From a bacterium (GTDB taxonomy: Bacteria > Patescibacteriota > Doudnabacteria > UBA920): a stretch of DNA of 64,000 nt. The DNA lies in NCBI GenBank assembly GCA_016699995.1, contig CP064996.1:202357-266356 (forward strand), in the 5' to 3' direction. Under the pieces are notes generated by a model. The model searched no databases, had not been told where the DNA came from, and saw only the letters and a list, made by a program, of their open reading frames with translations. Below, piece by piece: positions 5,662 through 58,566 of this stretch. A program made the translations under genes and the position numbers. Within the stretch, counting starts at the first letter, position 1. Each line of letters opens with the position of its first letter.

Positions 5662-6441
5662 ATGAACGAACGCGACTTTGCCAAAATAAATTTTAACGAA
5701 ACCTCTCATCCCCCGGATGGCAGTTTTGAATATCCACTCATTGATAGCAATATGAGCCGGCAAGAGATTGAAGACTTTATTTTAGAATCGTATCCTGAGG
5801 CAAAAGAAGTCTTAGAGCGGCAGGAGATTTTAGATGTCAGATATCTAAATAAAGAAGGCAAGTTTTGCCAAGGGCAGATTGTTGTAGACAGAGAATTAGC
5901 TGCGGAAGTAGAGGATTTCTTTAAATTTTTATTAGATATACAATTTGGGATAGACAAAGTCGTTCCCATTCAGGACAAAAAATATTCCGGCGATGATGAA
6001 ACCTCGATGCAGGACAACAATAGCTCGGCCATGAATTATCGTTTTATTGCTGGCACAGAAAGATTGTCACTGCATTCATTTGGCTTCGCGATTGATATTA
6101 ATCCTTGGGACAATCCTGTGATAAAGAATGGGGAGATATTGGCTCCGATCGGCGGGGTTATGCCGAATTTGGATGACCCTCAAACTTTAACTGCAGAGCA
6201 TCCGGTGGTAAAATGGTTAGAAGAACATGGCTGGGAGTGGGGAGGCAGATGGGGGAATGATCGTTACGAAGATAATCATCACTTTCAAAAGCCGCTGGCT
6301 ACAGAACAATATTTGCAGGAATTAGAGAAGCAGCTGCAAGACGGAAAAATTTCCCAAGAAGATTTTGATGGTAGAGTTGGGGTAGCTAAAGCTAATTTAG
6401 ATTTAATTCAAAAGCATGAACAACGAACAGATACAGAATAA
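5662..6441 (+). CDS. Peptidase M15 family (VanY/D,D-carboxypeptidase-like) cell-wall hydrolase
   Basis: 259 aa; SxHxxGxAxD-type motif (LSLHSFGFAIDINPWDN) and a downstream His pair. Confidence 0.6.
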   Translation: MNERDFAKINFNETSHPPDGSFEYPLIDSNMSRQEIEDFILESYPEAKEVLERQEILDVRYLNKEGKFCQGQIVVDRELAAEVEDFFKFLLDIQFGIDKVVPIQDKKYSGDDETSMQDNNSSAMNYRFIAGTERLSLHSFGFAIDINPWDNPVIKNGEILAPIGGVMPNLDDPQTLTAEHPVVKWLEEHGWEWGGRWGNDRYEDNHHFQKPLATEQYLQELEKQLQDGKISQEDFDGRVGVAKANLDLIQKHEQRTDTE

Positions 6442-6666: not shown

Positions 6667-9513
6667 ATGAAAAAGTATAATCCACAGACAATTGAAAAGA
6701 AGTGGCAGGAATATTGGGCAACTAATAATACTTTTGCTGCGACCGAAAACTCCGACAAAGAAAAGAGGTATGTTTTAGTGGAGTTCCCATATCCCTCTGG
6801 AGACGGTTTGCACATGGGGCATTTGCGAAGCTATACAGCCGCAGATGTTTTGGCTCGCTGTTACAGAATGCAGGGCAAAGAAGTTATGTATCCAATAGGT
6901 TGGGATGCTTTTGGCTTGCCTGCAGAAAATTATGCCATAAAACATGGCGTGCAGCCGGCGATTACTACAGCAAAAAATATTGAAAACATTAAAAAGCAAT
7001 GCCAACGCCTCGGTTATAGCTTCGACTGGAACCGCGAAGTAAATACTACCGACCCGGAATACTATAAATGGACACAATGGCTGTTCTTAAAGTTTTTCGA
7101 GGCTGGTTTGGCATACGAAGCAACCGGTTTAATTAACTGGTGCCCGAAAGATAAAACCGGATTGGCCAACGAGGAAGTAGTGAATGGCCATTGCGAACGC
7201 TGCGGCACGCTTGTTGAAAAGAAAGAGCTGCGCCAGTGGTATTTAAAAATTACTGAATACGCCGACAAATTATTGCAAGGCTTAGAAACATTGCCCGAGT
7301 GGCCAGAGGCTGTGAAACTGCAGCAGGCTAATTGGATAGGGAAGTCTGAGGGTGCAGAAATCGATTTTGCGATTCAGGGCACAGACCAATCAATTAAAGT
7401 CTTTACGACTCGCCCCGACACCATATTCGGTGCTACATATTTAGTATTGGCCCCGGAGCACGAATTGCTCTCAGTTTTGCTTGAAGAAGAAGACAAGAAA
7501 CTGGAAAATTTTGCAGAGGTGGCTGGTTATGTTCAGCAGGCCAAATCAAAAACAGAGATCGACCGCAGTGCCGAAGGGAAAGAAAAGACCGGCGTTGAGT
7601 TAAAAGGTGTAAAGGCAATCAACCCGGCTACGAATGAGCAAATTCCAATTTTTGTTGCAGATTACGTGTTGGGAGGTTATGGCACAGGCGCTATTATGGC
7701 TGTTCCGGCTCACGACAGCCGCGATTTTGAATTTGCAAAAAAATATAATATCCCTATTGTGCAGGTCGTTGCGCCTAAAGTCATTGACACAGTAAATCCT
7801 CCTGTCGAGGGCGAGGAATATACAGCCCGTAAATTGGTTCATGTGATTGTTAAGCATCCGACTGAGGAAAAATTTATCTCTTTAAAATGGAAAGAGCATA
7901 AGTGGAATACTTTTGTGACCGGCGGCGTAGAGGATGGCGAAGATTTAATAGAAGCTGCAAAGCGGGAAGCACTAGAGGAAACGGGCTATAAAAACATGAC
8001 TTTTGTGGCACAAATGCCTTACATAGTCAGGGCAGAATTTTTTGCCAAGCATAAAAATGTAAACCGCCGCGCTGATGCCTATGTGGTTATACTTAAATTA
8101 GATGATTTGGACCAAGATCAAGTTGTCAAAGAGGAGCAGGATCTATTTGAACCGGAATGGTGGGATATGAAAGATATGAAGCATCTATCACCGGTTTCAG
8201 AATTGGAATACATCTTAAACTGGCTGGAAAATGGCGATGGGCCTTACACAGGCGAAGGTGTATTAATAAACTCCGGCGAGTTTACTGGGCTGAATTCTAC
8301 AGAGGCCCTGGAGAAAATGGCCGCAAAATACGGTATACCTAAAACTACTTACAAGCTGCGCGATTGGGTCTTCAGTCGCCAGCGCTATTGGGGCGAGCCA
8401 ATTCCTATTGTGCACTGCGAGACAGACGGGGTGGTGGCAGTTCCTTACGACCAGCTTCCAGTTGTGTTGCCTGAGGTTAAACAGTATGAACCAACTGGTA
8501 CCGGAGAGTCGCCTTTGGCTGCGATAGATGATTGGGTCAACACCGCGTGTCCGAAATGCGGAGGCGAAGCAAAACGAGAAGCTAATACCATGCCGCAATG
8601 GGCTGGCAGCAGCTGGTACTATTTGCGCTATGCAGACGCGCGCAATAATAATGAGTTTGCTGCTCCTGATAAACTAAAGTATTGGCTTCCTGTCGATACA
8701 TATTTTGGCGGCATGGAACATACTACGCTGCATCTTTTGTATTCCCGCTTTTGGAATATCTTTCTGCACGATCAAGGCTTAGTCCCGGTCAGCGAGCCTT
8801 ACACTAAACGCGTGCCGCACGGCATGGTTTTGGCCGCCGACGGCAGCAAGATGAGCAAGAGCAAAGGCAATGTAATTAATCCAGACGAAATCGTAAAGAA
8901 GTACGGGGCAGATACTGCGCGAATGTACGAGCTGTTTTTGGGACCGCATGAGGCAAGCGTCTCTTGGAGCGATCAGGGTATTACTGGAGTGGCCCGTTTC
9001 TTGGATCGTGTATGGTACTGGGTTAACAATATTACTCCGTCAGAAAGCAATAGTGAAATTGCAGACAGGGAAATCAATATTCTCATTAAGAAGATCACCG
9101 AAGACATTGCTGCTTGTGGGTATAACACTGCGATTTCTAACTTCATGAAATTTCACAATGAAGTCAAAGATGAAGCTATCACTAAACAATCTATGGTTGA
9201 TTTTATAAGGCTGCTTTATCCATTTGCTCCTCATATCTCCGAAGAAATTTTCGAGCTGCTCGGTGGAGAGGGAAGCGTGCAGCACCAGCCATGGCCTCAA
9301 TTTGATGAAGGCAAAATAGCAACAGCGACGGTTAAGATAGTAGTGCAGGTGAATGGTAAGGTAAGAGATACTCTAGAAGTTGCGGTGGGAGGTAGTCAAG
9401 AAGAAGTTTTAGCTCGCGCTATTCAATCGGAAAAGGTTAGCACGGCTATGGCCGGGAAACAGTCGACCAGGGTAATATTCGTAAAAGATAAGCTGATCAA
9501 TATAGTGTTATAA
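6667..9513 (+). CDS. leuS: Leucyl-tRNA synthetase carrying an inserted Nudix-hydrolase domain
   Basis: 948 aa; HMGH and KMSKS motifs, CP1 editing-domain blocks (AHDSRDFEFAKKY), and RDWxxSRQRYWG. About 120 extra residues after the editing domain contain GGVEDGEDLIEAAKREALEETGY, which matches GX5EX7REUXEEXGU. Confidence 0.95.
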   Translation: MKKYNPQTIEKKWQEYWATNNTFAATENSDKEKRYVLVEFPYPSGDGLHMGHLRSYTAADVLARCYRMQGKEVMYPIGWDAFGLPAENYAIKHGVQPAITTAKNIENIKKQCQRLGYSFDWNREVNTTDPEYYKWTQWLFLKFFEAGLAYEATGLINWCPKDKTGLANEEVVNGHCERCGTLVEKKELRQWYLKITEYADKLLQGLETLPEWPEAVKLQQANWIGKSEGAEIDFAIQGTDQSIKVFTTRPDTIFGATYLVLAPEHELLSVLLEEEDKKLENFAEVAGYVQQAKSKTEIDRSAEGKEKTGVELKGVKAINPATNEQIPIFVADYVLGGYGTGAIMAVPAHDSRDFEFAKKYNIPIVQVVAPKVIDTVNPPVEGEEYTARKLVHVIVKHPTEEKFISLKWKEHKWNTFVTGGVEDGEDLIEAAKREALEETGYKNMTFVAQMPYIVRAEFFAKHKNVNRRADAYVVILKLDDLDQDQVVKEEQDLFEPEWWDMKDMKHLSPVSELEYILNWLENGDGPYTGEGVLINSGEFTGLNSTEALEKMAAKYGIPKTTYKLRDWVFSRQRYWGEPIPIVHCETDGVVAVPYDQLPVVLPEVKQYEPTGTGESPLAAIDDWVNTACPKCGGEAKREANTMPQWAGSSWYYLRYADARNNNEFAAPDKLKYWLPVDTYFGGMEHTTLHLLYSRFWNIFLHDQGLVPVSEPYTKRVPHGMVLAADGSKMSKSKGNVINPDEIVKKYGADTARMYELFLGPHEASVSWSDQGITGVARFLDRVWYWVNNITPSESNSEIADREINILIKKITEDIAACGYNTAISNFMKFHNEVKDEAITKQSMVDFIRLLYPFAPHISEEIFELLGGEGSVQHQPWPQFDEGKIATATVKIVVQVNGKVRDTLEVAVGGSQEEVLARAIQSEKVSTAMAGKQSTRVIFVKDKLINIVL

Positions 9514-21012: not shown

Positions 21013-21906
21013 TTAGTGGGTGATCGCCGCGCGAATGGCCGTGGAGTGGCCTCGTTCCACGAGTGTTCTGATGTCCATCACCGGAAACGTTCCGGTGTGG
21101 TTCTTGCATTCCGCCGGCTTCTCGTTTCGGCGGAAAAACGTGTAGATGTAGTCCTCTACAGGGACCACAGTTTTTCTCGGAAGCCTCTTGAGTGCCACCG
21201 TTGTCAGTTCTAGCTCTTCAGCTTCGAACTGGGCCTTGGCTTCCGGCAGCCACCTTCTCAGAGCAGTGTTCTGCTGCTGCTCGAGTACTCCCGACGGTTG
21301 CCGGCGATAGCCGGCAAGCTCGCGGCCAATGGCCTTTGCGACACGTTCGATAACGGTGTCGTTCTTGCCGCCGAGCTTTTCGTAGCCCGAACGGACCACG
21401 ATACTCTCGACGAACCAGCGACCTCTGCGATTTTCGAACACCATCACGGCGATGGCTTCGTTTTTGCCAACGACCTTCTGGTCGTAAACGACCTTGCCGT
21501 CATTCGTGAAGACGACCAGATCCTGGTCCTTTCCGGCTTTGATCGCGTCGTTGTGCTTGGCCAAAATATTCTGGCTCAGCGACGTCCGGGCGATCTCGCG
21601 TCGGATAGGCGAGTTGCCGTATCGCGACGGTCCAGCGATGACGATCATCTGACCGCATTCATCAATGCGGAGCACGTCGTCTTGCCGGAGCACGGCCGTA
21701 TTGTCGAGTGCCTCGATGTTGTCGTGGCACTTTACAAAGAAATTCCCTGTTGTGCCGGCATTCGGCACGATCTCGATCTCCGGGAACTCGACTATTTCCC
21801 CGGTCCGGGTCGTTGTCTTCGGGTAGAATACTCCCGTGAGGCCGATGAACTCGACCCCGATGATGTAAATAACTTCCAGCCCTTTACTAAACATTCCTTT
21901 CTTCAT
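21013..21906 (-). CDS. hypothetical protein encoded on a high-GC islet
   Basis: Table ORF 21013..21990; likely start ATG 21906 (MKKGMFSK) with aggagaaaag RBS. Local GC is 55-63% versus about 40% in flanks. No recognisable domain. Confidence 0.5.
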   Translation of the reverse strand: MKKGMFSKGLEVIYIIGVEFIGLTGVFYPKTTTRTGEIVEFPEIEIVPNAGTTGNFFVKCHDNIEALDNTAVLRQDDVLRIDECGQMIVIAGPSRYGNSPIRREIARTSLSQNILAKHNDAIKAGKDQDLVVFTNDGKVVYDQKVVGKNEAIAVMVFENRRGRWFVESIVVRSGYEKLGGKNDTVIERVAKAIGRELAGYRRQPSGVLEQQQNTALRRWLPEAKAQFEAEELELTTVALKRLPRKTVVPVEDYIYTFFRRNEKPAECKNHTGTFPVMDIRTLVERGHSTAIRAAITH

Positions 21907-22233
21907 TTTCTTTTCTCCTGGGCAGTGCCCTTCAAAAACCAAAAATGGTGGACGGCGGCCTCGTTGGCCTTTGTCCGCTGCGGGGCGCAAAAGCGCTGTG
22001 TGGAAGCAAACCTAATAAACTGCTTGTAAATGTGCATCAACCCCAGACTATTACCGTGCTGGGTCTGGAATAAACCAGTAAACTCAGCACAATTAAAGCC
22101 ATTTAAGGTTAACTGGAAATTATAGCATAAAATATCAATTTTGTCAATACCCAACAATATGTGATATTTATCGACTTCGATTATTGGTTTAAGTATGTGT
22201 TTCTTTGTAAATCAGGAATTTTTATTTATTCCC

Positions 22234-46630: not shown

Positions 46631-47599
46631 TTAGGCTGTGCTTTTATCGGCAATCAGCTTATCCATAGGCGATTGGCCAGAGTTTAGCTGCTTAGCATTA
46701 TCGACCATATCTATTCCGACGTTATTGACTTTGCTCACTTCAGACCCTATCTCACGGAGTTTGTTTATTTGTCCTTCAAATAGGCGTGTTGCAGTATCAT
46801 TAACCGATTCATAGCTACCCCCAGCATATTTTTGTATGAGAGGGTCAGCCTCTGATACGCTACGCAGGTCATTGACCATCTTGCTTAGTTCTCTGGAAAC
46901 CTGTTCTGCTATTTGCATTTGGGCTTCTGTTTGGTCTCTCACTGCTATCAATTCTTCAGGGGCGCGGATGGCGCTGAGTTGAGAAGCGATGTTGTCCCGT
47001 GTCTCTTCGACCGCCTTTTTTTGGCTTGTATTTAGGAATCTATCTTCCTGAATAATTCTTTCGATCTTGCTCAGATCGTTTTCCAGCTCGAATCTTAAGC
47101 TATGTAATGCAGAGCTTACGTCGGCCTTAGCGTTTTCGAATTTGATCCTGAGTGCTGGTATTTTACACTCGCTGAGGAATTTATGCATCTCATCCATGCG
47201 AAAGATTGGGTCTATGAGAAACTGTCCCCTCATTTTACCCACCTGGGTAGATGTTCTTTTTGAGCTTCTTAAAATGCGCTCGGTGCGATCTTTAAGATAA
47301 AAGAAATTGGCACCCAGATAGCTGCCGATGGCTGCGCAAAGGAACCCTAACCCAATTCTTAGTGCTAGCCAGGGGACCCCAAATTCAGGGAAGTAAGGGT
47401 CGATGATGAAGACTCCTATGGTTGAAGCAACTAAAAACGCAAACAATATATTTCCGATTAAACCGCCTATCCTGGAATATAATTCTTTTCTGGTAGGGGG
47501 TTTGATGCTATCTTTCCAAAATTCCTCTAGTTCCGGCATCAGCCAGTCAAAACTGGTAGAATCCAAATAGGCTTTCGCCATATTATCAATTGATGACAT
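46631..47599 (-). CDS. hypothetical membrane-anchored coiled-coil protein
   Basis: 322 aa; two N-terminal TM helices then a long helical/coiled-coil region. Confidence 0.45.
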   Translation of the reverse strand: MSSIDNMAKAYLDSTSFDWLMPELEEFWKDSIKPPTRKELYSRIGGLIGNILFAFLVASTIGVFIIDPYFPEFGVPWLALRIGLGFLCAAIGSYLGANFFYLKDRTERILRSSKRTSTQVGKMRGQFLIDPIFRMDEMHKFLSECKIPALRIKFENAKADVSSALHSLRFELENDLSKIERIIQEDRFLNTSQKKAVEETRDNIASQLSAIRAPEELIAVRDQTEAQMQIAEQVSRELSKMVNDLRSVSEADPLIQKYAGGSYESVNDTATRLFEGQINKLREIGSEVSKVNNVGIDMVDNAKQLNSGQSPMDKLIADKSTA

Positions 47600-47701: not shown

Positions 47702-48103
47702 TTGTGGTATAATGATGGCAATATGATTGATTTATTGCGTAATACTCCAGACCTAAATTCACCCGAAGCTGGGCACTCTCCAAATGAGTCCGAGCAGATT
47801 ATTCACGGGCAGGAAGGACAATTAGAAGGCCAGGAAGGCGGAGCAGAACATCAGGGCTACGAAGCTCAGCCCGGCAGTTCCGAACAGGGAAATGCGCTAG
47901 AAGAAGAACCGGCAGCAGCAGGTCAGCAATATGAACAATCGCAAGTAGAAACGTTCGTACCGGCGCCGGAAGCTGTGCTAAATGAAACTCCACAGCAAAT
48001 AGAGGATGAAACCGGCAAGCTTTTAACCGGAGAGAACAGGATTAATCCGGCAGACAGCTCTACAGCTAAAGCGCTGCTAGACATCCTTAACGGCGGAAAA
48101 TAG
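47702..48103 (+). CDS. acidic low-complexity hypothetical protein
   Basis: 133 aa (possible start 47723, MIDLLRN); Q/E/G-rich. Confidence 0.3.
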   Translation: MWYNDGNMIDLLRNTPDLNSPEAGHSPNESEQIIHGQEGQLEGQEGGAEHQGYEAQPGSSEQGNALEEEPAAAGQQYEQSQVETFVPAPEAVLNETPQQIEDETGKLLTGENRINPADSSTAKALLDILNGGK

Positions 48104-48195: not shown

Positions 48196-50751
48196 ATGTT
48201 CGGATTAGAAACTAATACTATTATTTTTGCTTCACTGCTACTGGGTCTTTTAGTAGTAGTGTTTTTGTCTATCCTGGCGTATTATTTGCACCGCCACTGG
48301 TACTATAAGAAAGTCATTCTGCCTCGCACCAAGAACTGGGTGTTTTTAGAAATCCAGATGCCTAAAGATAATAGCGAAGATAAAGAAAAGTATCAGCGCG
48401 ATGAAGAAAAGAAAAATCTAATTTCTATTGCCGAACAGCTTTATACCACTCTGTCTGGCATAAGCCACGAGAATTGGTTTTGGCAGCCGCGCGAATACAT
48501 CAGTTTCGAAATTGCCTGTATAGAAAAAAAGATTTCTTTTTTCATTAACTGTCCGCGCAACTTGCAGGAGCTAATCGAAAAGCAGATTCAGGCTCAATAC
48601 CCCCACGCCTTTATCGAGGAGATCAAAGGCTACAATCCGTTTCCGGCTAACGGCACTATCGAAGCGACTGAGTTAAAGCTCAATAAAGCCTATATGTTCC
48701 CGGTGCGCACTTATCGCAATATGGAAACCGATCCGCTGAATGCGCTTACTAACGCCATGTCCAAGTTAGGTGAAGAAGATGGCGCGGTCATTCAATTGAT
48801 TCTGTATCCGGCCGGCCATCATTGGCAGCATCGCCCGCGCCATATGGCTTTGGAAATTCAGCAGGGAAAAAATCCCAACGTAGTTGCTAAGAGCGCTCTG
48901 GGAAGATTTGGAAAGGAAGTCGGCGGCGAATTAAAGAATACAGTTATCGGCGGCGGCAAGCTGACCGACGATCAGCGCAGTCAGCGTACGGACTTATCCG
49001 GACGTTATATGGCTATTAATCTAACGCCCATGCAGCAGGAGATGGTCAAGCGCTTTGAAGAAAAAGCCAGCCGGCCAGGGTTTTACAGCAATATCCGCAT
49101 CATCACCGCATCGCCAAACGCCAATACTGCCAAGGTTAATATGCACAACCTCACTGCATCTTTTTTGCAGTACAGCATGCCGCCATTTAATGGCTTTCGC
49201 GTTAAGCGCCGTTCTAAAAAGCGAATTATCAAAGATTATATTTTCCGGATTTATCGCCGTTACGGCCGCAAGGCAATCTTGAATACCGAAGAGCTGACCA
49301 GTATTTGGCATCTGCCAACTCCATTTTTAGAAACCCCAAATATCAAATGGCTGCTTTCTAAGAAAGCTCCACCGCCGATTAACTTGCACGAAGATGGCGT
49401 ATTAATCGGCCGCAATATTTACCGCGGCACAGAGACTAAGATTCATATGGGCCGAGATGACCGCCGCCGTCATATGTACATTCTCGGCCGTACCGGTGTG
49501 GGTAAGACCGAAATCATGAAGTATATGTCTGTACAGGATATCCAGAACGGCGATGGCGTTTGTATTATCGACCCCCACGGCGACTTTATCGAAGACGTAT
49601 TGCCACACATTCCTAAGGAGCGAGCTGAAGATGTTATTCTGTTTGACCCATTCGATACCGACAGGCCGATGGGCTTAAACATGCTTGAGGTTACCAGCGA
49701 AGAGCAAAAAGACTTTGCTGTGCAGGAAATGATTTCCATTTTCTATAAATTGGTCACCGATCCGGCTATGCTAGGACCGATGTTTGAGCATAATATGCGC
49801 AATGCGATGTTAACGCTGATGGCAGACGAAGAAAGCCCAGGCACGTTGGTAGAAATTCCGCGTATTTTTACAGATACGGAATTTCAGAAGTATAAGGTTT
49901 CCAAGCTCCGCGATCCAGTTGTTCGGGCATTTTGGGAAAAGGAAATGGCCAAGACTTCGGACTTCCACAAGTCGGAGATGTTAGGTTATTTGGTTTCCAA
50001 AGTTGGCCGCTTCGTAGAAAATTCTATGATGCGCAATATCGTCGGTCAGCCAAAGAGTTCTTTTAATTTCCGAGAGATAATGGACAACAAAAAGATCTTG
50101 CTGGTTAACTTGGCTAAAGGAAAAGTGGGGGAGATGAATGCTAAACTTATCGGTTTGATTTTAGTTAGTAAGATCCAAATGGCTGCATTGTCCCGCGCTG
50201 ATATTCCGGAAAGCGAACGCCAGGACTTCTATCTTTATGTAGATGAATTCCAAAACTTTATCACCGATGCATTTTCTTCTATTCTGAGTGAAGCGCGTAA
50301 ATACAGACTTAATTTGATTATTGGCCACCAATTCTTGGCTCAGCTCGCGCAAGGAGCCGGTGCGCAAGGAGCCGGCAGTAACGATTTGCGTGACGCTGTA
50401 TTCGGTAATGCTGGCAGCATGGTTACTTTCCGTATCGGTGTAGAGGATGCCGAGACTATGGCTAAAGAGTTTGCGCCAACCTTCAATGAATTTGATTTAT
50501 TGAATGTTGATCGGTTTAATGCCTTTGTAAAGCTAATGATCAACGGTACAGCCAGTAAACCGTTTAACATCGCTACGTATCCGCTCCCTAAGCCAAACGA
50601 AGAGCAAAAGAAAACCGCCGGCGCTATTCGCCAGCTGTCGCGATTAAAGTTTGGCCGGCCGCGCAGCGATGTAGAAACGGAAATTCTAGAGGCTAGTCAG
50701 ATTGCCGACATGATGGCCGCCGGTCCTGGCGCTATAGAAAAAACAGTTTAA
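48196..50751 (+). CDS. membrane-anchored T4SS-type P-loop ATPase (TraG/TraD/VirD4 coupling-protein-like; a VirB4-like assignment is not excluded)
   Basis: 851 aa; N-terminal TM helix; Walker A ILGRTGVGKTE (~aa 438); Walker B LYVDEFQNF (~aa 668); downstream EARKYRLNLIIGHQFLAQL resembles the RKYGLxLxLxTQSxxQL motif of VirD4/TraG. Confidence 0.6.
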   Translation: MFGLETNTIIFASLLLGLLVVVFLSILAYYLHRHWYYKKVILPRTKNWVFLEIQMPKDNSEDKEKYQRDEEKKNLISIAEQLYTTLSGISHENWFWQPREYISFEIACIEKKISFFINCPRNLQELIEKQIQAQYPHAFIEEIKGYNPFPANGTIEATELKLNKAYMFPVRTYRNMETDPLNALTNAMSKLGEEDGAVIQLILYPAGHHWQHRPRHMALEIQQGKNPNVVAKSALGRFGKEVGGELKNTVIGGGKLTDDQRSQRTDLSGRYMAINLTPMQQEMVKRFEEKASRPGFYSNIRIITASPNANTAKVNMHNLTASFLQYSMPPFNGFRVKRRSKKRIIKDYIFRIYRRYGRKAILNTEELTSIWHLPTPFLETPNIKWLLSKKAPPPINLHEDGVLIGRNIYRGTETKIHMGRDDRRRHMYILGRTGVGKTEIMKYMSVQDIQNGDGVCIIDPHGDFIEDVLPHIPKERAEDVILFDPFDTDRPMGLNMLEVTSEEQKDFAVQEMISIFYKLVTDPAMLGPMFEHNMRNAMLTLMADEESPGTLVEIPRIFTDTEFQKYKVSKLRDPVVRAFWEKEMAKTSDFHKSEMLGYLVSKVGRFVENSMMRNIVGQPKSSFNFREIMDNKKILLVNLAKGKVGEMNAKLIGLILVSKIQMAALSRADIPESERQDFYLYVDEFQNFITDAFSSILSEARKYRLNLIIGHQFLAQLAQGAGAQGAGSNDLRDAVFGNAGSMVTFRIGVEDAETMAKEFAPTFNEFDLLNVDRFNAFVKLMINGTASKPFNIATYPLPKPNEEQKKTAGAIRQLSRLKFGRPRSDVETEILEASQIADMMAAGPGAIEKTV

Positions 50752-50816
50752 AAAAGAAGCGTTCTCGGGAGAGAACGCTTCGATGCTTTTCAGCGAAAGA
50801 GGTAAAAGAATTTGGC

Positions 50817-52739
50817 CTACGGTTCAACAATCAAAGGCGATTGCTGCGAGATCGTGTCGTCGTAGATATCCTCGAAGAACTTTTGGAACTCCGGGTTATA
50901 AACGATATGATCGGCTGTACCTTCTGCAATACGGTCTATAAGACCGTCTGCTCGAAGATCGCGGATCACGAAGATCAATGCTCGCCGCGTTTTCGCCGAC
51001 ATCGGAGCGCCTTTGATATTGGCGCCAATGTCGAATGCGGAACCGATTACGTGCGTCCGTGGCTGCGTTTGGGGCAGGCACTTTCTCACGTCGTACATCC
51101 AGTTCGACCGGATTAATCCGGTCACTTCGAACGGGTCTGTACCCTCTTGCTCCTTTACCTTAGCAGCGATGAAGAATATCATGCCGGTGGTTGCTTTCCT
51201 GGTGTAGTAGTAGCTACTTTTGTGTTCAGGATCGCATTCGCCCACGGGGTTTTGTCCGGTAGTGCGGAGGACAAACCCATATTTGGCATTGTCAGGTACC
51301 GATACTAATTCTCCCCGCTTGGCAGCAAGGTCGATGTCTTGGCGAGTATTATACACCGCTTCGTCATCACCGTACCACGCGCGCATCGGCCGGTTGGCCA
51401 AACCGCCGTCCGGATCCTGCTGTTCGGCTACCATCTTGTCGAAGGCAGTACGATCGCTCCTCATTAGCTCGAAGCCTTTGAGGGCGGCTAGGCCGGTGTA
51501 GACGTAGGTGGCAGAACTGTCCTCAAGCCTATACAAGAACGAATATGTTTTCGGTGTCTTTGTGGGAGTGCACCGGAAAAATATGTCGTCGTACGTAAAG
51601 CCGTATTTGGCTATGGCTTTGGGAATGGACCTGTCCGGGTCGCTGATCTGGAACCTTTGCACGTTTTTCATGCCAGGAACATTAGATCGGTCGATCGGAA
51701 ATTCTTTGCTCCAGCCTGGGTAGACTTCATCCAGGTAATGAACTACCAGCTTGCGCTGGAAGCCCTGACCCATATGGTACTGGACGAAAGCCCAGTTTTC
51801 GTCGCCCCAGTATTTGGTCGCCTTGCCTAGGATCGATGCAGCTACGGGAACAGCCGCGGACGGGTTAAGCCGTTTGTCGTCGATGTTTTCACCTTTGGGG
51901 ATGAACTTCATCTTCTTCGCACGGGCTCGCTTGCAGAATGCTTTGTCGGCGATTAAGCCTTCTTCGCATCCCACACTCAACATAATCTGAGCAATGCCTG
52001 CCGCACCCGACGTGTTGTTAACTTTGTCGGTACTGCTGGCGCTCTCTACGAATAGCTGAGCTTCCAGGCGATTGGGAGTGATGCCGTTGGCATTGGCCTC
52101 ATTCTCAATCAGATTCCGGAATTGACCCATACGCTCTGCATTCTTGGTAGCATCCTTTTGTCCCCACACTGCCCACATGGCGTGGTTGATGCGGTTCTCC
52201 TTGCGCTTTGCCAGATCTTCTACGCTCATGTCTCCGCGGTTTCGTCCATAAGGCCATTTCGATGCAACTGTTTCGACCGTTTTAATCGAAATGAATACCG
52301 AAACCGGAATAACGAAAGCGAGCGTAACGCCGATAGCTATTAGCCTGGTTCGGAGCGGTAAAGCCATGAACCATTTACCGGCGATTTTGGCGTACTCAAT
52401 TTGTACAGAGTGAAGCTTTCCAAGACCCCTGCGAATGAATCGCAGGAAGGCATTGCCGATCTCAATAGCTCTGAAGAGCTTTGGCCGGTTTGCGAAAAGT
52501 TCAGGCTTGTGAACAAGTTTGCCTAGCACATAGCTTGAAACGATCAATAAGGTAAAACCTAAAATCAACCATATCGCGCCGTATGCCAGAGTTACGAACA
52601 GGTAGGTGAGCGCCAAAGCGGCTGCTGCTCCTACCGTCAGCCAGGGTAAAACATAGAACGTCCAAATGACGGTCAGTTTTACCAGCCACTTCGAAATCCA
52701 ATGGTTCTTTGTACCATTGGACAGCATTTTATCAACCAT
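50817..52739 (-). CDS. membrane-bound lytic transglycosylase (SLT domain), PrgK/TcpG/VirB1-like
   Basis: 640 aa; 4 N-terminal TM helices; SLT motif ES...S(x)AGAAGIAQIM; extra C-terminal domain; GC about 50%. Confidence 0.55.
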   Translation of the reverse strand: MVDKMLSNGTKNHWISKWLVKLTVIWTFYVLPWLTVGAAAALALTYLFVTLAYGAIWLILGFTLLIVSSYVLGKLVHKPELFANRPKLFRAIEIGNAFLRFIRRGLGKLHSVQIEYAKIAGKWFMALPLRTRLIAIGVTLAFVIPVSVFISIKTVETVASKWPYGRNRGDMSVEDLAKRKENRINHAMWAVWGQKDATKNAERMGQFRNLIENEANANGITPNRLEAQLFVESASSTDKVNNTSGAAGIAQIMLSVGCEEGLIADKAFCKRARAKKMKFIPKGENIDDKRLNPSAAVPVAASILGKATKYWGDENWAFVQYHMGQGFQRKLVVHYLDEVYPGWSKEFPIDRSNVPGMKNVQRFQISDPDRSIPKAIAKYGFTYDDIFFRCTPTKTPKTYSFLYRLEDSSATYVYTGLAALKGFELMRSDRTAFDKMVAEQQDPDGGLANRPMRAWYGDDEAVYNTRQDIDLAAKRGELVSVPDNAKYGFVLRTTGQNPVGECDPEHKSSYYYTRKATTGMIFFIAAKVKEQEGTDPFEVTGLIRSNWMYDVRKCLPQTQPRTHVIGSAFDIGANIKGAPMSAKTRRALIFVIRDLRADGLIDRIAEGTADHIVYNPEFQKFFEDIYDDTISQQSPLIVEP

Positions 52740-53083
52740 CTTTTACCTCAATATTTCCTCTTTATATTTGAAATCGTCACAAATTTCAGTGACTTATTAA
52801 AATAGCATATTTTACCTGTTTTGTCAATAAATAAAGGGTTTTTTGGCTTTACCCTTGACAAAAACTTAAAAATAGTGTATACTAATCCTTCAAACTAAAT
52901 ACAGTGAATTTCCTGAGGAAAATTGGTTTATGAGGGATATAATCAATTTGCCCAAGAGTAAAGCAATTTTCCTCAGGTCATGCACAGTGCAGACCGTTGT
53001 AGCGTAGCGCCAAGAAATTGGTTAGCGACATTGTAACGGTCAGCATTTTGACCAGAGATTTCAAACATCGCCTAAAGGAGGGC

Positions 53084-53767
53084 ACTATGTTTAAAAAGAT
53101 TATTACTTTTGTACTGTTTGCTGTTTTCACGTTTGGTTTCGTTTCGCCGGCCCTTGCTGGCGGCGGTGACGATTGTCCGGTCGCCAAGAAGAAGGCTACT
53201 ACGGTCGTCAAAAAGCGTACCTGCGTAACCTGTCCGAAAGCGGATGGTGTCGCACGGGCCGATAACAAGCGCCAGGACGAAGAGCTTGCTGCTCTTCGCG
53301 ACGGTAAAGCTGACAAGGCCGACCTCGCGGGAAAAGCCAATCAGGCCGACCACGAGAACCTTGAAAAGCGGGTCACGGTGATCGAAAACAAGCTTCCAAG
53401 CTTCTTCGTTCTTCCGGACCTTGGTGGTCTGGGCTGGCTGATCTTCTGGATCGGTATCATGGCGCTAATCGCCGCTGCGATTTACGCACTCGTGCGAGGT
53501 CGTGGTAACGGCGGTGGTACTGTGTACAATTACCCGGCAAACCCGCCGGCCCCTCAGCCGGTGCCGGTGGCGTACAACCCCGGTTATCAATACCACCCGT
53601 ATGGTTATCCGGCCCCGGCTCCTCAGCCCGCACCTGCGCCGGCCGCGCAGCAGAACCAAAACGGGGTATTCGTCCCCGTTAACTACGAGGTCGCTCCGAT
53701 CACAATTCGACTGGGAGCCACCGTGGTTCCTCAGCAAGGCCCGGCAAACCCGCCGGCAGCGCAATAG
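53084..53767 (+). CDS. Pro-rich secreted/membrane protein on a high-GC segment
   Basis: Start trimmed to ATG 53084 (MFKKIITFVLFAVFTFGFVSPALA signal peptide) after aaggaggg RBS. Central TM helix; C-terminal PAPQP/YP repeats; GC about 60%. Confidence 0.5.
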   Translation, partial: TMFKKIITFVLFAVFTFGFVSPALAGGGDDCPVAKKKATTVVKKRTCVTCPKADGVARADNKRQDEELAALRDGKADKADLAGKANQADHENLEKRVTVIENKLPSFFVLPDLGGLGWLIFWIGIMALIAAAIYALVRGRGNGGGTVYNYPANPPAPQPVPVAYNPGYQYHPYGYPAPAPQPAPAPAAQQNQNGVFVPVNYEVAPITIRLGATVVPQQGPANPPAAQ

Positions 53768-54131
53768 TGCGCGAATCTTTTTTTACCAGAGGTCTAAGTT
53801 TCATGCTTGGGCCTCTTTTTTTGAGCTATTTTTATCCACTTTTCTTATTTATGGTTTATATATGGTATAATTAAGCAAAGCTGATTTCCTAATTTTGAAA
53901 TAAAAACATGGCGAAACGCGAAGGTGCGCCTCGGCCTGAACAAGAAAACGACCAACAAAATATTGGACAAAATACAACCAGAATGCAGATCAAGCTGGTC
54001 GTTTAGACGTACCTCAGACAGAACAGGAGGCCCGTTATTATCAAGAAATTAACGAGTCTCGAGCTAAGGCCAAAGCTTACGAAGCTAAGCTAGAAGGTTC
54101 CATTGCAGAGCGTGAAGCTCAGGCAAAATAC

Positions 54132-57100
54132 GTGGATAAGATGCGAGCCATGTACCCAAACTGGGATAAGTTCAACGGGGTGTCTTTAGCTGAGCAGTAT
54201 GCAAATCGCGAACAGCTGCAAGCCAGAGCGGAGGTTGCGAGGGAGGTTGTTAATGGCGCAGAACAAATTGTAAACGAAGTTGTTCATGGCCCAGAACTTA
54301 TTGCTCAGGTGGACCACGCATTGGCTACGGGCGCATTAACAGCAGAACAGGCGGCGCAGATGCGCGCAGCTCTGCAAAATGAGCAGGCCCGCCAGCAAAT
54401 TGTTACCAAAACTATTACATGGAAGGATCGCGCATCTAATTTTAAAGATTGGGTTGTAGACAGAGCACCGGCATTTATTGCAGGTGCTGTTGCCGGTGGA
54501 GCCGCGCGCAAAGCCGTTAAAGTCGGAGCTATAGCAGCTTTTGGGGCTAATTTGCCTGTGGCTATTGCCGCCGGTGCTTTAGGCGGTGGTCTAGTAGAGG
54601 GGATTAAAACCGCCTGGCGCGAATCTAAATCATACCGCACCAAAGATATAATGGAGCGTTTTAATAATGCGGGCGATTTAGATAAAGCTGCGATGTTGGC
54701 GAAAATAGAGCAGTTGCACGCAGAGCAGCGTTTAGAGGCTAGTCCGGAGGAATATTTGGCAATCGGCAATGCTTTGGCTCAAGCAAGAGCACAAATGCAG
54801 CTCAGCGTGGAAGGTCGCGATAATCGCTATGCCAATATGAGTGAACGCGATAAAATCGCGTATATTCTTCATATTACAGACAAGAACCGTAAAGATGTGA
54901 TGAAACTGGAAGACAAGAACCGTATGAAGGAATCTAAGGCTTTGATTAAAGCTTTAAATAAGGAAATTGAATCCAAGCATGACAAGAGCTTTGCACGCTT
55001 GGGCGGCAAGAAAGCCGTCGTCGGTAAAGCGATCTTTAAAGGGGCCGCATTCGGTGCGCTGGGCGGCACTATTGGCGCTGCTGTTGTAGATTACTTTAGC
55101 GGTCCGTCTAGTGAGACTATATCTAGAGTTGTAGAACAGAAACCTACTGTATCCGAGAGTTTTCATGCGCATATGGATCACCGCGGCATTACCGGTGGAG
55201 CGCGCGATTCGCTTCATACTTTAATCGAACAGCAGCGAGGTATAGATCCAGAATTTGCTAAGGGTATTAATGTCGAACAGCTTGTCTATGCAGAAGATAC
55301 TCTTGCTAAAGATGCACTAAGAGCTGGAGTTAATCCTGGCGTAGAGAGCATGACTTGGTCTAAAGATGAGTTAATGGGCGCTTTGGAAAAGTCTGGCGCT
55401 ATTCCGGATGATGCGACTCTAACAGAAGCCGGTCAGCAGAATATAAGTGAAGTTATCAAAACTAAAGCTCATTTCTTATCGGAAGCGACCAAGGCAAAGA
55501 TGCTCGATTTTGATCCGGCTGAGGCCCGCACTTTTATAGAAGAAGTTTCTGTCGACAGAAATGATAGTTTTACTTATGAAGATTATGCAGCCTTGGCGGG
55601 CGTTTTGGCAGCTATATTAGCTTCCGAAGCCATAAGTTATGCAGATCGCGATAAAGCTGCCGCTAAGCTTCGAACTTTATATTACAACGTTCCAGGATTA
55701 CCAGGACGGCCGCCAGAAGGCGTAGCTCCGACGGCCGGCGGCGAGTATGTTGCTCCCACTCCTGTTTTTAGGACCACAGAAGGGCGAGATGTAAACAGAA
55801 CCCAACCGGAAGACCAGCCGATTCCAAGGCCAGAGGGTGTGCCGTTTGATCGAGCCGAAAATTCAGAAGATGCTCCGATAGCTAAGCCGGAGGGCACGCC
55901 TTTTAATAACGAAGAAAAATCTGATGAAGATGACCAGGGAGACAAAAATGAGCGTTTTCCAAATGGAGCGCCTCCATCGCCATTTACTCATCCGGAAGGA
56001 GTGAATCCTGAAGCGCAAGATAACGAGGAGCAGAATGAAGAAGCTGAAGAAGCTACAGAAGGTGAACAGCCTAACGAGGAAGGCACAGAGTCTAAGCCTA
56101 AGGGTCCTCACGCGAAGTTCGCGGAAAAATTAAATAAGGAATTGCAGGATGCAAAGATTCCTACCGAAGTGAAGTTGCCGCGGGGTAAGCTTAGCGAAAA
56201 AGACAGAAATCGCATCGAGTACTTAACCGATGAGTTTATTTTGAATTCCGAAAGATTGGATGGCTTGGATATTCCTCATAAGGTTGTGTTAGATTTTTAT
56301 CCGAAAGGGGAGAGGAAGTTAGGATTTAATCAGGACAACGAAATTGTTGTTGGAGTGCCTTTTACAGATAAGCAAATCAATGGCAAGTCTATGCTAAAAC
56401 TTGCTAAAGAAATCGTTAAGCTAAAAGTCGAGGATGTGATCCAGGGCGTTAAGGAATTGTATGGCCAGGTATTAACAAAGAGCGAACGCAAGCGTTTGAA
56501 TAAACTTCCTGTAGAGAACCAGCTTAGGGCTGCTAATATGCTGTTAGAAGCGCATGATAAGAAAGCTATGGAGAAGGTTCTGCCTAATGTCAGGGGTTAC
56601 TTGAAGGAATCACCGTTGGCTGAGGAAGGCGAAAATATTATCGAAGGTGAGTTCATTGATATTGTTGAAGACAAAAATGAAGTCGAATCTGTGCCGGAGA
56701 AAGAAGAACAGCTTACTAGCGCCGAGATACCGGGATATTCTAATATTTTTATCGATGAGAGATTTGATAAAGTCGATAATAAACAGCAGGTATTTTTTAA
56801 AGATACAGTTAGGGATATTTTGGACCATGAGTTTTTAGGTGGACTGAATCCGGATTTGAAAATTGTGCTTTCAAATCAATTTTCTGTTAAGGATAAAACT
56901 CTATATTTGGATGCCAATAAATCCGATTGGAAACATATATCAGGACGTTTGCACAGCGGTATTCGCTTAGCTTTGAAAGGCGGGGATTTCCGTACGCTAG
57001 AACCGGCGAAAGATTACGCTTCAAAAGCGAAGAGAAAAAAAGCAGACGACGAATACCAGATGGGTCAGCCTAAATTTAGAAGCAGCGAGGGGCGCGATTT

Positions 57101-57542
57101 AAACCAAGAAAAGGAAGAATTACAGGATAGCAATACTCCAGATAGAATTGCTGCAGAAAAGTTTGCCGACAGTGCTGTAAAAGAGCTGTTTGATACTGAT
57201 GTTAATTTAGTGGATTTGAAAAAAGGCGACACCGAATGGCAGCAGTGGATCGACGAAGAGAGATTGAATTTGGATAGAATTTCATCCAAGAAAATTTCCA
57301 ATACCCAAAAGAAAAAGATCGAAAGTCATTTGGGGAAGAAAAAAATCACAATAGAAAGTTTATTAGATGAAGAAGCACCTCCCGAAATTGCCGGTGTAAA
57401 GCCTAATACTGTAAAGAGGTATATTGCAGAAGCTGCCTTGAATAAATTGGAAGAAATAATTAATGACCCTGCTGACCTTGACGAAGAATTTAACAGTCTT
57501 CGCAATAAAACCGAAGAATATTTGGAAAGGAAAGACAAGTGA
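54132..57542 (+). CDS. very large hypothetical protein (1136 aa) with glycine-zipper membrane hairpins and acidic linker
   Basis: Table ORF with a GTG start. The frame is open upstream to 53940, and an ATG at 53908 in the adjacent frame suggests a longer N-terminus. Segments AFIAGAVAGGAARKAVKVGAIAAFGANLPVAIAAGALGGGLVEG and GKAIFKGAAFGALGGTIGAAVV; E/D-rich middle; coiled-coil regions. Confidence 0.55.
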   Translation: MDKMRAMYPNWDKFNGVSLAEQYANREQLQARAEVAREVVNGAEQIVNEVVHGPELIAQVDHALATGALTAEQAAQMRAALQNEQARQQIVTKTITWKDRASNFKDWVVDRAPAFIAGAVAGGAARKAVKVGAIAAFGANLPVAIAAGALGGGLVEGIKTAWRESKSYRTKDIMERFNNAGDLDKAAMLAKIEQLHAEQRLEASPEEYLAIGNALAQARAQMQLSVEGRDNRYANMSERDKIAYILHITDKNRKDVMKLEDKNRMKESKALIKALNKEIESKHDKSFARLGGKKAVVGKAIFKGAAFGALGGTIGAAVVDYFSGPSSETISRVVEQKPTVSESFHAHMDHRGITGGARDSLHTLIEQQRGIDPEFAKGINVEQLVYAEDTLAKDALRAGVNPGVESMTWSKDELMGALEKSGAIPDDATLTEAGQQNISEVIKTKAHFLSEATKAKMLDFDPAEARTFIEEVSVDRNDSFTYEDYAALAGVLAAILASEAISYADRDKAAAKLRTLYYNVPGLPGRPPEGVAPTAGGEYVAPTPVFRTTEGRDVNRTQPEDQPIPRPEGVPFDRAENSEDAPIAKPEGTPFNNEEKSDEDDQGDKNERFPNGAPPSPFTHPEGVNPEAQDNEEQNEEAEEATEGEQPNEEGTESKPKGPHAKFAEKLNKELQDAKIPTEVKLPRGKLSEKDRNRIEYLTDEFILNSERLDGLDIPHKVVLDFYPKGERKLGFNQDNEIVVGVPFTDKQINGKSMLKLAKEIVKLKVEDVIQGVKELYGQVLTKSERKRLNKLPVENQLRAANMLLEAHDKKAMEKVLPNVRGYLKESPLAEEGENIIEGEFIDIVEDKNEVESVPEKEEQLTSAEIPGYSNIFIDERFDKVDNKQQVFFKDTVRDILDHEFLGGLNPDLKIVLSNQFSVKDKTLYLDANKSDWKHISGRLHSGIRLALKGGDFRTLEPAKDYASKAKRKKADDEYQMGQPKFRSSEGRDLNQEKEELQDSNTPDRIAAEKFADSAVKELFDTDVNLVDLKKGDTEWQQWIDEERLNLDRISSKKISNTQKKKIESHLGKKKITIESLLDEEAPPEIAGVKPNTVKRYIAEAALNKLEEIINDPADLDEEFNSLRNKTEEYLERKDK

Positions 57543-57853
57543 TCAAAGACATTATCAACAAAGCATTAGCTGATCTTAATATTAACGACCTGCAGGAAGC
57601 AGAGCAGTACCAGGTCATGACTCAGCTTACTGAGCATTTTAACCAAATCGCAATCGATACTGTAATTGCTAATTTGAACGATGAACAATTAGCGGAGTTT
57701 AAAAGTATTGTTTCGGGCGGCGACCCGGAGAAATTGGAAGATGACTTGTCCGTGCTTGTGGCTAAGATTCCGGCTATCGATTTAAAGCTAGAAGAAGCGA
57801 TTAATTCTGAAATTGCCCATATCAAAGCCTCTAAGGCAATTATGGATAAGTAA
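57539..57853 (+). CDS. small acidic hypothetical protein, translationally coupled to the upstream gene (GTGA overlap)
   Basis: 104-aa ORF. Confidence 0.4.
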   Translation: MIKDIINKALADLNINDLQEAEQYQVMTQLTEHFNQIAIDTVIANLNDEQLAEFKSIVSGGDPEKLEDDLSVLVAKIPAIDLKLEEAINSEIAHIKASKAIMDK

Positions 57854-57936: not shown

Positions 57937-58566
57937 ATGGATAAAGGAAATTTTGCTTTGATCGTGCAAATGATCGAAGCGGCAGAAAAAAATATTCAGT
58001 CAGCCAAGCATTTGTTGCGCGAAATGGCCGGTGGAACTATACCTAAATCGACTACTAACTTTGCAGAAAAGGCTAGTACTCTTGGCGTTGCCGAAGGCGG
58101 TAAAGTTATAGAAGGGGTATTTGACGGCCAAAATATGATTGGACCAGACAGCAAGCAGTATCCGGTGCCTGCAAACTATGCTTCTAAGTCTAAGCTGGTT
58201 GAAGGGGATGTGTTAAAGCTGACCATCGCCGAAGACGGATCTTTTATTTACAAACAAATTGGTCCGGTTGAACGCCGCAAAATCATTGGCGTATTGATGC
58301 AGGATGAAAATGGCGATTACAAAGTTATTGCTGATGGAAAAACTTACCGCGTCCTTTTGGCTTCGCTTACTTACTTTAAAGCAGAAGCAGGGGATGAAGT
58401 TACCATTGTGGTGCCTAGCGAAGGAGAAACCCAGTGGGCGGCGGTGGAAAATGTGATCAAGCACTTGGCTGGCGGAGCTGGCGGCGAATTTGCCGGTCCT
58501 TCTAGTGCTCCTAAAGATGAAGACATCGAAGCCGACTTAGCTGTCGGAGAAACCGAAGAATTTTAA
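57937..58566 (+). CDS. hypothetical protein
   Basis: 209-aa ORF; acidic C-terminus. Confidence 0.4.
   Translation: MDKGNFALIVQMIEAAEKNIQSAKHLLREMAGGTIPKSTTNFAEKASTLGVAEGGKVIEGVFDGQNMIGPDSKQYPVPANYASKSKLVEGDVLKLTIAEDGSFIYKQIGPVERRKIIGVLMQDENGDYKVIADGKTYRVLLASLTYFKAEAGDEVTIVVPSEGETQWAAVENVIKHLAGGAGGEFAGPSSAPKDEDIEADLAVGETEEF

Follow-up and report, generated by a model that had tools for sequence, protein, structure and literature searches.

Do the envelope-related genes that adjoin a coupling-protein-like ATPase in a Patescibacteria chromosome form, together with that ATPase, a divergent type IV secretion system (T4SS), or is the ATPase a conserved protein in its own right, next to genes of another kind? 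The question is raised by a 64,000-nt stretch of contig CP064996.1 (the contig measures 943,189 bp), from a bacterium of the Doudnabacteria lineage; this whole stretch is referred to here as the window. An initial annotation, made from the nucleotide sequence, had proposed that five adjacent genes in it constitute a T4SS- or conjugation-like envelope module, encoding a membrane-anchored ATPase, a membrane protein with a lytic-transglycosylase (SLT) motif, a Pro-rich protein of 249 aa, a large protein of 1136 aa and an acidic protein of 104 aa. Type IV coupling proteins (T4CPs) are very common in these organisms, with a recent survey reporting 5,713 VirD4-like homologues in 2,918 Patescibacteria genomes, of which only 148 are near virB4, as well as a homologue in Southlakia epibionticum that is non-essential for epibiotic growth and for which exaptation was considered possible (Quinonero-Coronel et al. 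2025, PMC12102498). The T4SS cluster that is essential in S. epibionticum carries no recognisable coupling protein or relaxase (Wang et al. 2023, PMC10633639). For the present locus, we favor with good confidence an explanation in two parts, i.e. a stand-alone membrane T4CP hexamer, which would serve a channel encoded elsewhere or have taken on an exapted role, and an adjoining, fast-evolving envelope island.

The ATPase is a long-form coupling protein

The ATPase has a single strong N-terminal transmembrane (TM) helix (residues 9-27, by hydropathy), followed by basic residues, so that its C-terminal part is predicted to be cytoplasmic. Classical VirD4 proteins have two TM helices. The N-terminal domain (approximately residues 45-400) corresponds to DUF8128 (PF26449, a precomputed Pfam annotation of the residues before ~400), and is followed by a P-loop nucleotide-binding domain (NBD, approximately residues 410-800) with the Walker A motif GRTGVGKT (residues 431-438), the Walker B motif LYVDEF (residues 682-685) and an all-alpha insertion. 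An AlphaFold2 (AF2) model, with a mean pLDDT of only 71, places helices at residues 503-630, between the two Walker motifs. The modelled fold belongs to the VirB4/VirD4/HerA clade, and fold alone separates none of these families.

Sequence comparisons were more discriminating, and agree with the resemblance to TraG/VirD4 coupling proteins that had been noted at the outset. Pfam TrwB_AAD_bind matched with 43.2 bits (cut-off 20.5) and T4SS-DNA_transf with 25.3 bits (cut-off 20.1), with DUF87/HerA also matching, and the top partial matches in NCBIfam were to TraD and VirD4-type models. A phmmer search of the Protein Data Bank (PDB) returned TrwB (1e9r, E 1.3e-7, residues 414-725) and also DotL; the TrwB alignment covers the region of the all-alpha insertion and pairs the ATPase motif RKYRLNLIIGHQFLAQL with GRKAGLRVVAGLQSTSQL of TrwB. 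Moreover, homology that includes the N-domain (residues 82-800) extends to the T4CPs of a 64.7-kb Bacillus subtilis plasmid (NZ_OX419568) and a 325-kb Embleya plasmid (NZ_CP108778), with blastp E values over residues 82-797 of 4e-36 and 1e-68, respectively. Both plasmid T4CPs directly adjoin genes annotated as 'replication-relaxation family protein' (Pfam Replic_Relax was confirmed for the Embleya neighbor only, the B. subtilis neighbor having no Pfam match), and cluster with PrgI/TcpE-like genes and a separate VirB4 of the AAA_10 type. Using hhalign, the ATPase family aligned to the plasmid T4CP with 99.8% probability over 631 columns, versus 6.5%, at the P-loop only, for the VirB4 of the same plasmid. 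By Pfam, PDB and hhalign alike, the protein groups with coupling proteins, and not with FtsK or HerA proper.

The plasmid homologues, taken with this hhalign contrast, argue that the ATPase is a true long-form T4CP of the VirD4/TrwB type, the type used by monoderm conjugation systems, and not a VirB4. Identity as a VirB4 was ruled out by the same hhalign comparison and by blastp against the VirB4s of plasmids that also hold a T4CP homologue; neither the VirB4 N-domain (CagE_TrbE_VirB) nor AAA_10 was matched in Pfam at E<=0.1, and the 'VirB4-like spacing' once read into the protein is no sign of such an identity.

The DUF8128 domain by itself matched 2,068 clusters at 50% identity, mostly of 800-870-aa proteins. 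Full-length relatives of the long form (DUF8128 plus TrwB-like motor) also occur in PHROG 5156 (function unknown, E 1.8e-96), and one is encoded by the Bacillus jumbo phage G (gp156; JN638751.1 90871-93141). Literature searches on DUF8128, and on the DUF5715 and DUF5663 domains that are met below, found no papers.

A conserved backbone with a variable island

In order to place the T4CP and its neighbors in a comparative setting, the window proteins were mapped by tblastn onto 87 related loci (80 from species-representative genomes and 7 from assemblies), of which 80 are labelled Doudnabacteria, Patescibacteria or 'uncultured Saccharibacteria'. Approximately 60 Doudnabacteria-type Patescibacteria share one fixed gene order, consisting of ribosomal proteins (r-proteins), SecY, a small acidic ORF, the T4CP, a gap, a 209-aa protein, GtrA and DnaX, and a 542-aa protein after DnaX likewise belongs to this constant backbone. 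Backbone proteins were detected in the majority of the loci (SecY in 60, the T4CP in 86, the 209-aa protein in 64, GtrA in 59 and DnaX in 55), versus 5 for the SLT protein, 7 each for the 1136-aa and 104-aa proteins, and 2 for the 249-aa protein. Over 28 distant genomes, mean identity was 68% for the T4CP and 68% for SecY, 44% for GtrA and 42% for DnaX. The ATPase shares with the long-form T4CPs of Gram-positive (MPF-FATA-type) conjugative plasmids a membrane anchor, a TrwB-like P-loop motor, the all-alpha insertion, Walker A and B motifs and the RKxxLxxxxxxQ pattern, but differs in being chromosomal and single, in having no adjacent relaxase, VirB4, VirB3 or VirB6, and in its fixed place beside SecY with a core-gene-like conservation (68% where DnaX has 42%).

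The gap between the T4CP and the 209-aa gene is where the loci diverge. It measures 0.1-2 kb in genomes with T4CP identities of up to 72%, with one exception (L069, 9.4 kb), and extends to 4-10.5 kb in the subclade of the window, where T4CP identity is at least 76%. Even among genomes with 76-93% identical T4CPs the content of the gap differs, some carrying proteins of 884-1440 aa and then a 102-110-aa partner (the pair found in the window), and others a different protein of 1500-1750 aa, preceded by a DUF5663 protein. The SLT, 249-aa, 1136-aa and 104-aa genes fill a slot whose content changes between close relatives. The T4CP stays by SecY in approximately 60 genomes regardless of these genes, and since its position is kept with or without them, the five genes are no conserved module.

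All five ORFs of the initial annotation are present, and they lie with their neighbors in the window as follows:

47702-48103, plus strand: small acidic ORF directly 5' of the T4CP, a positional partner of the ATPase (pI 4.05, low-complexity)
48196-50751, plus strand: long-form T4CP ATPase, 851 aa (TM, DUF8128 and P-loop NBD)
50756-50781, no strand assigned: GC-rich hairpin with an 11-bp stem and T-runs on both strands, bidirectional-terminator-like (consensus scan only)
50817-52739, minus strand: predicted SLT wall hydrolase, 640 aa (3-4 TM, SLT at residues 210-330, C-terminal domain at approximately residues 480-620)
53018-53767, plus strand: predicted bitopic envelope protein, the 249-aa ORF, with a probable start at ATG 53087 (by hydropathy and composition)
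53788-53816: terminator-like hairpin 3' of the 249-aa gene (consensus scan)
54132-57542, plus strand: fast-evolving 1136-aa protein of island family F2, with Gly/Ala-rich segments, a Pro/acidic linker and a helical C-terminal part
57539-57853, plus strand: acidic, helical 104-aa partner of island family F3 (pI 4.35), overlapping the 1136-aa ORF by 4 nt
57937-58566, plus strand: 209-aa protein, the conserved downstream neighbor of the T4CP (a helix and two OB/cold-shock-like barrels in the model)

The window as a whole is a core chromosomal stretch of Patescibacteria (candidate phyla radiation, CPR), encoding LeuRS, MetRS, SHMT, ParB, EF-G, EF-Tu, the r-protein operon, SecY and DnaX, and the proteins of the locus are deposited as QQS23190.1 to QQS23195.1. 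Promoter and terminator calls were consensus matches only. By these scans, the SLT gene, which is convergent to the ATPase gene across the strong hairpin at 50756-50781, has a promoter-like site of its own; divergent promoter-like sites lie in the AT-rich spacer at 52.8 kb, and another such site lies 5' of the 209-aa gene. The view of the five genes as a conserved or a co-transcribed module is not supported, the latter on the basis of these consensus scans.

The higher-GC segment that had been pointed out at the SLT and 249-aa genes is real. Their GC contents are 51.1% and 56.8%, with a third-codon-position GC (GC3) of 0.60 in both, compared with 0.40-0.51 in the adjoining genes; 200-nt windows reach 0.64, against a mean of 44.4% for the window. 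Such deviant GC3, the typical occurrence of T4CPs and SLT enzymes on mobile elements, and the full-length T4CP relatives in PHROG 5156 and phage G (gp156) would all suit a decayed integrated conjugative element or a prophage remnant in which a coupling protein and a lytic enzyme had been retained. However, the T4CP has been conserved by vertical descent at a single chromosomal site in >60 species, with a rate of evolution as low as that of SecY, the island site shows no integrase, relaxase, repeats or flanking tRNA, and IMG/VR holds no close relatives of either the T4CP or the SLT protein, all of which makes such an origin highly improbable.

In several relatives (L006 777-5471, L020 16991-21520, L024 15749-19630, and others) the slot is occupied by 450-650-aa proteins of several families, with 6-10 TM, beside GtrA, and these could be GtrC/GT-C-like surface glycosyltransferases. 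When the polytopic and large island proteins of the relatives were searched with Pfam, no match was obtained except DUF5663. Hypervariable genes at a fixed site beside GtrA, with polytopic proteins in relatives, form an arrangement that may be analogous to surface-variation loci of the gtrABC or O-antigen type; it differs from these in that the window's island has no recognisable glycosyltransferase, and that the polytopic proteins of the relatives are without a Pfam match. In one further relative (L007 8245-9474) the island encodes a DUF1615 protein with an 'AESGY' motif reminiscent of lytic transglycosylases, and would thereby add another type of wall enzyme to this slot.

The wall hydrolase of the island

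The SLT protein reached 23.3 bits with Pfam SLT (cut-off 21.3), and the same model matched 13 of the 15 family members at E<=10 (best E 3e-7). Within the domain (residues 210-330), all members of the family retain the catalytic Glu232 and the SGAAGxxQ motif, the full invariant set being E232, S244-G245-A246, G248, Q251 and H322-M323-G324. By profile and motifs, the domain conforms to the family 1 lytic transglycosylases. The domain is followed by a C-terminal extension of ~300 aa. The SLT domain and the additional C-terminal part described in the initial annotation were thereby borne out, while its four TM helices become three to four, since a hydropathy scan gives three and a 58-residue hydrophobic block (residues 18-80) could hold one more.

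The C-terminal domain carries an invariant TGLxR (TGLIR, 540-544), H563-x6-D570 and D610-H611, i.e. an M15/LAS-like zinc-peptidase set, with a motif spacing of 20/7/41 versus about 20/7/35-40 in E. coli MepK (SGYRS, ~20 residues, HxxxxxxD, ~35-40 residues, His). An HxxGxAxDI pattern is common to this C-terminus and to the window's own Peptidase_M15_4 protein, a D-Ala-D-Ala carboxypeptidase-like protein whose gene (5662-6441, plus strand) lies between the TatD and LeuRS genes. Pfam DUF5715 matched residues 511-610 below threshold in 5 of 15 members (best 19.8 bits versus 26.8), and the PHROG 342 endolysin domain was matched at 4e-6. Sequence searches of the PDB gave nothing significant for the SLT protein, a profile search of the PDB gave only chance bestrophin matches in the TM region, and tblastn against phages yielded no more than a 'carboxypeptidase' at E 0.5. 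On the motifs, we lean towards a two-domain architecture of SLT plus M15-like peptidase, and regard the protein as a membrane-anchored, probably two-domain wall hydrolase.

This family is exceedingly small, with only 15 homologues among 5.8 billion (5.8e9) proteins, and every homologue context examined was the same slot between the T4CP and the 209-aa gene, where the gene occurs in either orientation and most often on the GtrA side of the island. It did not cluster with the housekeeping MltG/Slt enzymes. Like the VirB1-like hydrolases of Gram-positive T4SSs (PrgK of pCF10, TraG of pIP501, TcpG of pCW3), the protein would combine an N-terminal anchor, an SLT/lysozyme-like glycosidase and a second wall-cleaving domain; it differs in that its second domain is M15/LAS-zinc-peptidase-like where theirs is CHAP or NlpC/P60, and in that its gene, known from ~15 sequences only, lies in a hypervariable slot outside any T4SS cluster. 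The proposed kinship with PrgK and TcpG therefore holds for architecture but not for context, as the gene is never beside VirB4 or VirB6 in the contexts examined, and occupies a variable slot.

The remaining island genes

The 249-aa ORF was correctly described as a Pro-rich protein with a signal peptide, as judged by hydropathy and composition; a signal-peptide-like N-terminus is followed by a short coiled region, a second TM (residues 137-155) and a Pro/Gln-rich tail (10% Pro). By tblastn, the only homologue detected was that of L004/L009, which represent one contig (30% identity); the L004 copy clusters with a 216-aa protein that occupies the corresponding position in L025. The protein also matches PHROG 32124 (unknown function) at 1.8e-5.

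In the 1136-aa protein, the Gly/Ala-rich hydrophobic segments (approximately residues 110-160 and 295-320), the acidic linker (a Pro/acidic stretch at residues 500-700) and the overlapping acidic 104-aa ORF were likewise found as described earlier. This protein has no match in Pfam, NCBIfam or PHROG. Nine other loci encode relatives of 884-1440 aa, with an identity of 24-46% that falls largely in the C-terminal part, and the F2 protein is followed by a 104-aa-type (F3) protein in 8 loci. The F3 family aligned to a DUF5663-positive family by hhalign (90% probability, E 1.4e-6), and Pfam DUF5663 (PF18908) was matched by 2 of its 7 members (best E 3.7e-4), the window protein itself being unmatched; the family thus appears to be distantly DUF5663-like.

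Conserved neighbors of the coupling protein

An ORF lies 5' of the ATPase in 77 of 85 loci, with a median length of 129 aa, a median pI of 4.6 and a median gap of 30 nt. These acidic proteins are very divergent and almost unalignable, with a recurrent 'LLNDIL'-like C-terminal helix seen by eye in six sequences, and the window's ORF matched nothing in Pfam or NCBIfam. On the other side, the 209-aa protein is found in the 64 loci at 64-91% identity, starts ~100 nt after the ATPase in several of them, and has >8000 homologues but no Pfam family. Its AF2 model (pLDDT 78) begins with a helix at the N-terminus, continues with two small beta-barrels and ends in a disordered acidic tail. A PDB sequence search gave nothing significant for this protein, and Foldseek with the model gave matches to RNase R cold-shock domains (CSDs), IF5A, SSB, S1 and aIF1A, which are all OB/cold-shock nucleic-acid binders, at marginal significance (best E ~1e-3). 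On the strength of the model, the 209-aa protein could be an SSB-like nucleic-acid binder. A further observation in this region concerns a 322-aa protein (46631-47599, minus strand), which has a TM hairpin and a long coiled-coil; its gene is an insertion that separates SecY from the T4CP operon, and none of the 87 related loci encodes a homologue.

These neighbors bear on whether the ATPase may be an exapted housekeeping nucleic-acid translocase, which would work independently of VirB4 with the tandem OB-fold protein of 209 aa and/or the acidic upstream protein, the island being unrelated surface-variation DNA tied to GtrA-type glycosylation. In its favor are a T4CP conservation equal to that of SecY, a position fixed among translation and replication genes, the OB/CSD-like fold and SSB-like acidic tail of the 209-aa neighbor, and the 6-10-TM proteins beside GtrA in the islands of relatives. 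The literature allows it as well, the Saccharibacteria homologue being non-essential for epibiotic growth (PMC12102498). Nevertheless, the Foldseek matches are marginal, synteny alone shows no function, the polytopic island proteins have no Pfam match, and the ATPase keeps every T4CP hallmark and has full-length relatives among plasmid T4CPs. On balance, we consider an exaptation of this specific kind quite unlikely.

The search for other secretion system components

No VirB4, VirB3, VirB6, VirB8, pilin or relaxase family was detected by Pfam and NCBIfam among the locus proteins and 30 further ORFs of the window, and neither the window nor the 87 loci (+/-10 kb) gave a tblastn match to VirB4, TcpE, PrgI or relaxase queries from plasmids. 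The absence of a recognisable VirB4, VirB6 or relaxase, conceded when the module was first proposed, is therefore confirmed for the window by both kinds of search. A search of the flanking sequence, which had been suggested as a way to find the missing genes, recovered neither VirB4 nor relaxase, the 10 kb upstream of the window holding housekeeping genes only and no T4SS part. In this respect the locus differs from minimal Gram-positive (MPF-FATA) T4SSs, for by sequence searches it has no clustered VirB4, VirB3 (PrgI/TcpE), VirB6 (PrgH) or VirB8-like gene. The reading of the locus as a T4SS module is thus partly supported, in that it contains one T4SS-family ATPase and one VirB1-like-looking hydrolase, which are neighbors by insertion.

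The window ATPase fits the known class of orphan Patescibacteria T4CPs, being VirD4-like and chromosomal, with no virB4 in the window or in the 10 kb upstream, like most of those in the 2025 survey. As far as we found, the accessible part of PMC12102498 and PMC10633639 do not report the DUF8128 long form, the SecY-level conservation, the fixed neighbors or the turnover hotspot; for orphan T4CPs, the former source, in that part, describes neither the SecY/209-aa synteny nor the acidic ORF or a variable island.

Weighing the explanations

In the explanation that we favor, the T4CP is a chromosomal, stand-alone protein, anchored by its TM helix, with DUF8128 on the cytoplasmic side and a TrwB-like motor that is predicted to be hexameric, and belongs to the conserved gene backbone of the Doudnabacteria-type lineage. 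It would most likely act as an ATP-driven hexamer in the membrane, binding a protein or nucleic-acid substrate and passing this on, by an inferred step, to a translocation channel whose genes lie elsewhere in the genome. A hypervariable, lineage-specific envelope island would have been inserted between the T4CP and the 209-aa gene, holding a membrane-anchored, putatively bifunctional wall hydrolase (SLT plus a probable M15/LAS zinc peptidase), a predicted bitopic envelope protein rich in Pro, and the pair of a large Gly/Ala-zipper protein and the DUF5663-like protein of 104 aa. The island genes would be separately transcribed, quickly turning-over surface or envelope genes, and no subunits of a T4SS built around the ATPase.

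Several observations weigh against this explanation. The T4SS search covered the window and 10 kb upstream of a 943-kb genome, so that a channel gene elsewhere is a supposition, and a fixed order in small, rarely rearranged genomes is no proof of a joint function of the T4CP with the acidic ORF or the 209-aa protein. The C-terminal M15 assignment of the SLT protein is based on motifs and sub-threshold Pfam matches; the C-terminal profile of the family scored -1.6 bits against E. coli MepK in hmmsearch, which is not significant, and hhalign of this C-terminus with the M15_4 protein of the window gave no match. Owing to these non-significant profile tests, the M15-like peptidase is rated probable, and not more. 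Finally, in the window's subclade the island is always directly 3' of the T4CP, and repeatedly contains large proteins, small helical partners and wall hydrolases, a pattern that would also fit cargo or accessory genes of T4CP-dependent export.

Such a functional, T4CP-centered export module would resemble the effector islands of type VII and type VI secretion systems (T7SS, T6SS), with the ATPase recruiting the large protein, the DUF5663-like 104-aa protein serving as a chaperone or adaptor, and the SLT-peptidase opening the wall locally. The constant abutment of island and T4CP speaks for it, as do the recurrent cassettes of a large protein with a ~105-aa helical partner (F2/F3, and F9/F8-DUF5663), the recurrent wall hydrolases (SLT, and DUF1615 in L007), and the parallel between a membrane-anchored two-domain hydrolase and VirB1 enzymes of the PrgK/TraG type (PMC12102498). 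On the other hand, the T4CP is equally conserved, in the same place, in ~45 genomes with a gap of 0.1-2 kb and without these genes; the SLT gene is read from the other strand, beyond a terminator-like hairpin, varies in orientation between genomes and is usually at the GtrA end; and no channel component is nearby. We therefore judge both the module as such and the division of labor just outlined to be unlikely.

A bolder variant, to which we give little credence, is that the SecY-linked long-form T4CP could power a Patescibacteria-specific, VirB4-free translocation process, with the acidic and 209-aa proteins as partners and the island as host-contact cargo or accessory genes. It is similarly doubtful that the island would then supply this process with giant Gly-zipper membrane proteins, DUF5663 chaperones and a bifunctional wall hydrolase.

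Additional observations in the window

Two further features of the window lie away from this locus. The leucyl-tRNA synthetase (6667-9513, plus strand) carries a NUDIX domain (Pfam E 9.6e-13, residues 410-507) after its editing domain, an unusual fusion. A 325-aa ORF (21013-21990, minus strand), with a GC of 0.56, a GC3 of 0.69 and no Pfam match, is the strongest compositional outlier of the window; it overlaps a 243-aa ORF on the plus strand, and both are candidate genes.

Implications for Patescibacteria

Patescibacteria are host-dependent, and in the one species tested their T4SS is essential for epibiotic growth; the role of the very common stand-alone T4CP homologues was left open by the 2025 survey (PMC12102498). 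To this picture, the present locus adds that the orphan T4CP is of the long, plasmid-type form with DUF8128, and that it evolves as slowly as SecY within one order-level lineage. It also adds two unnamed neighbors that are kept beside it, an acidic, disordered protein and a predicted OB-fold protein, and a bordering hotspot of envelope-gene turnover. These findings do not establish a new kind of secretion system; they provide starting points for work on what orphan T4CPs do, and on how episymbionts vary their surface.

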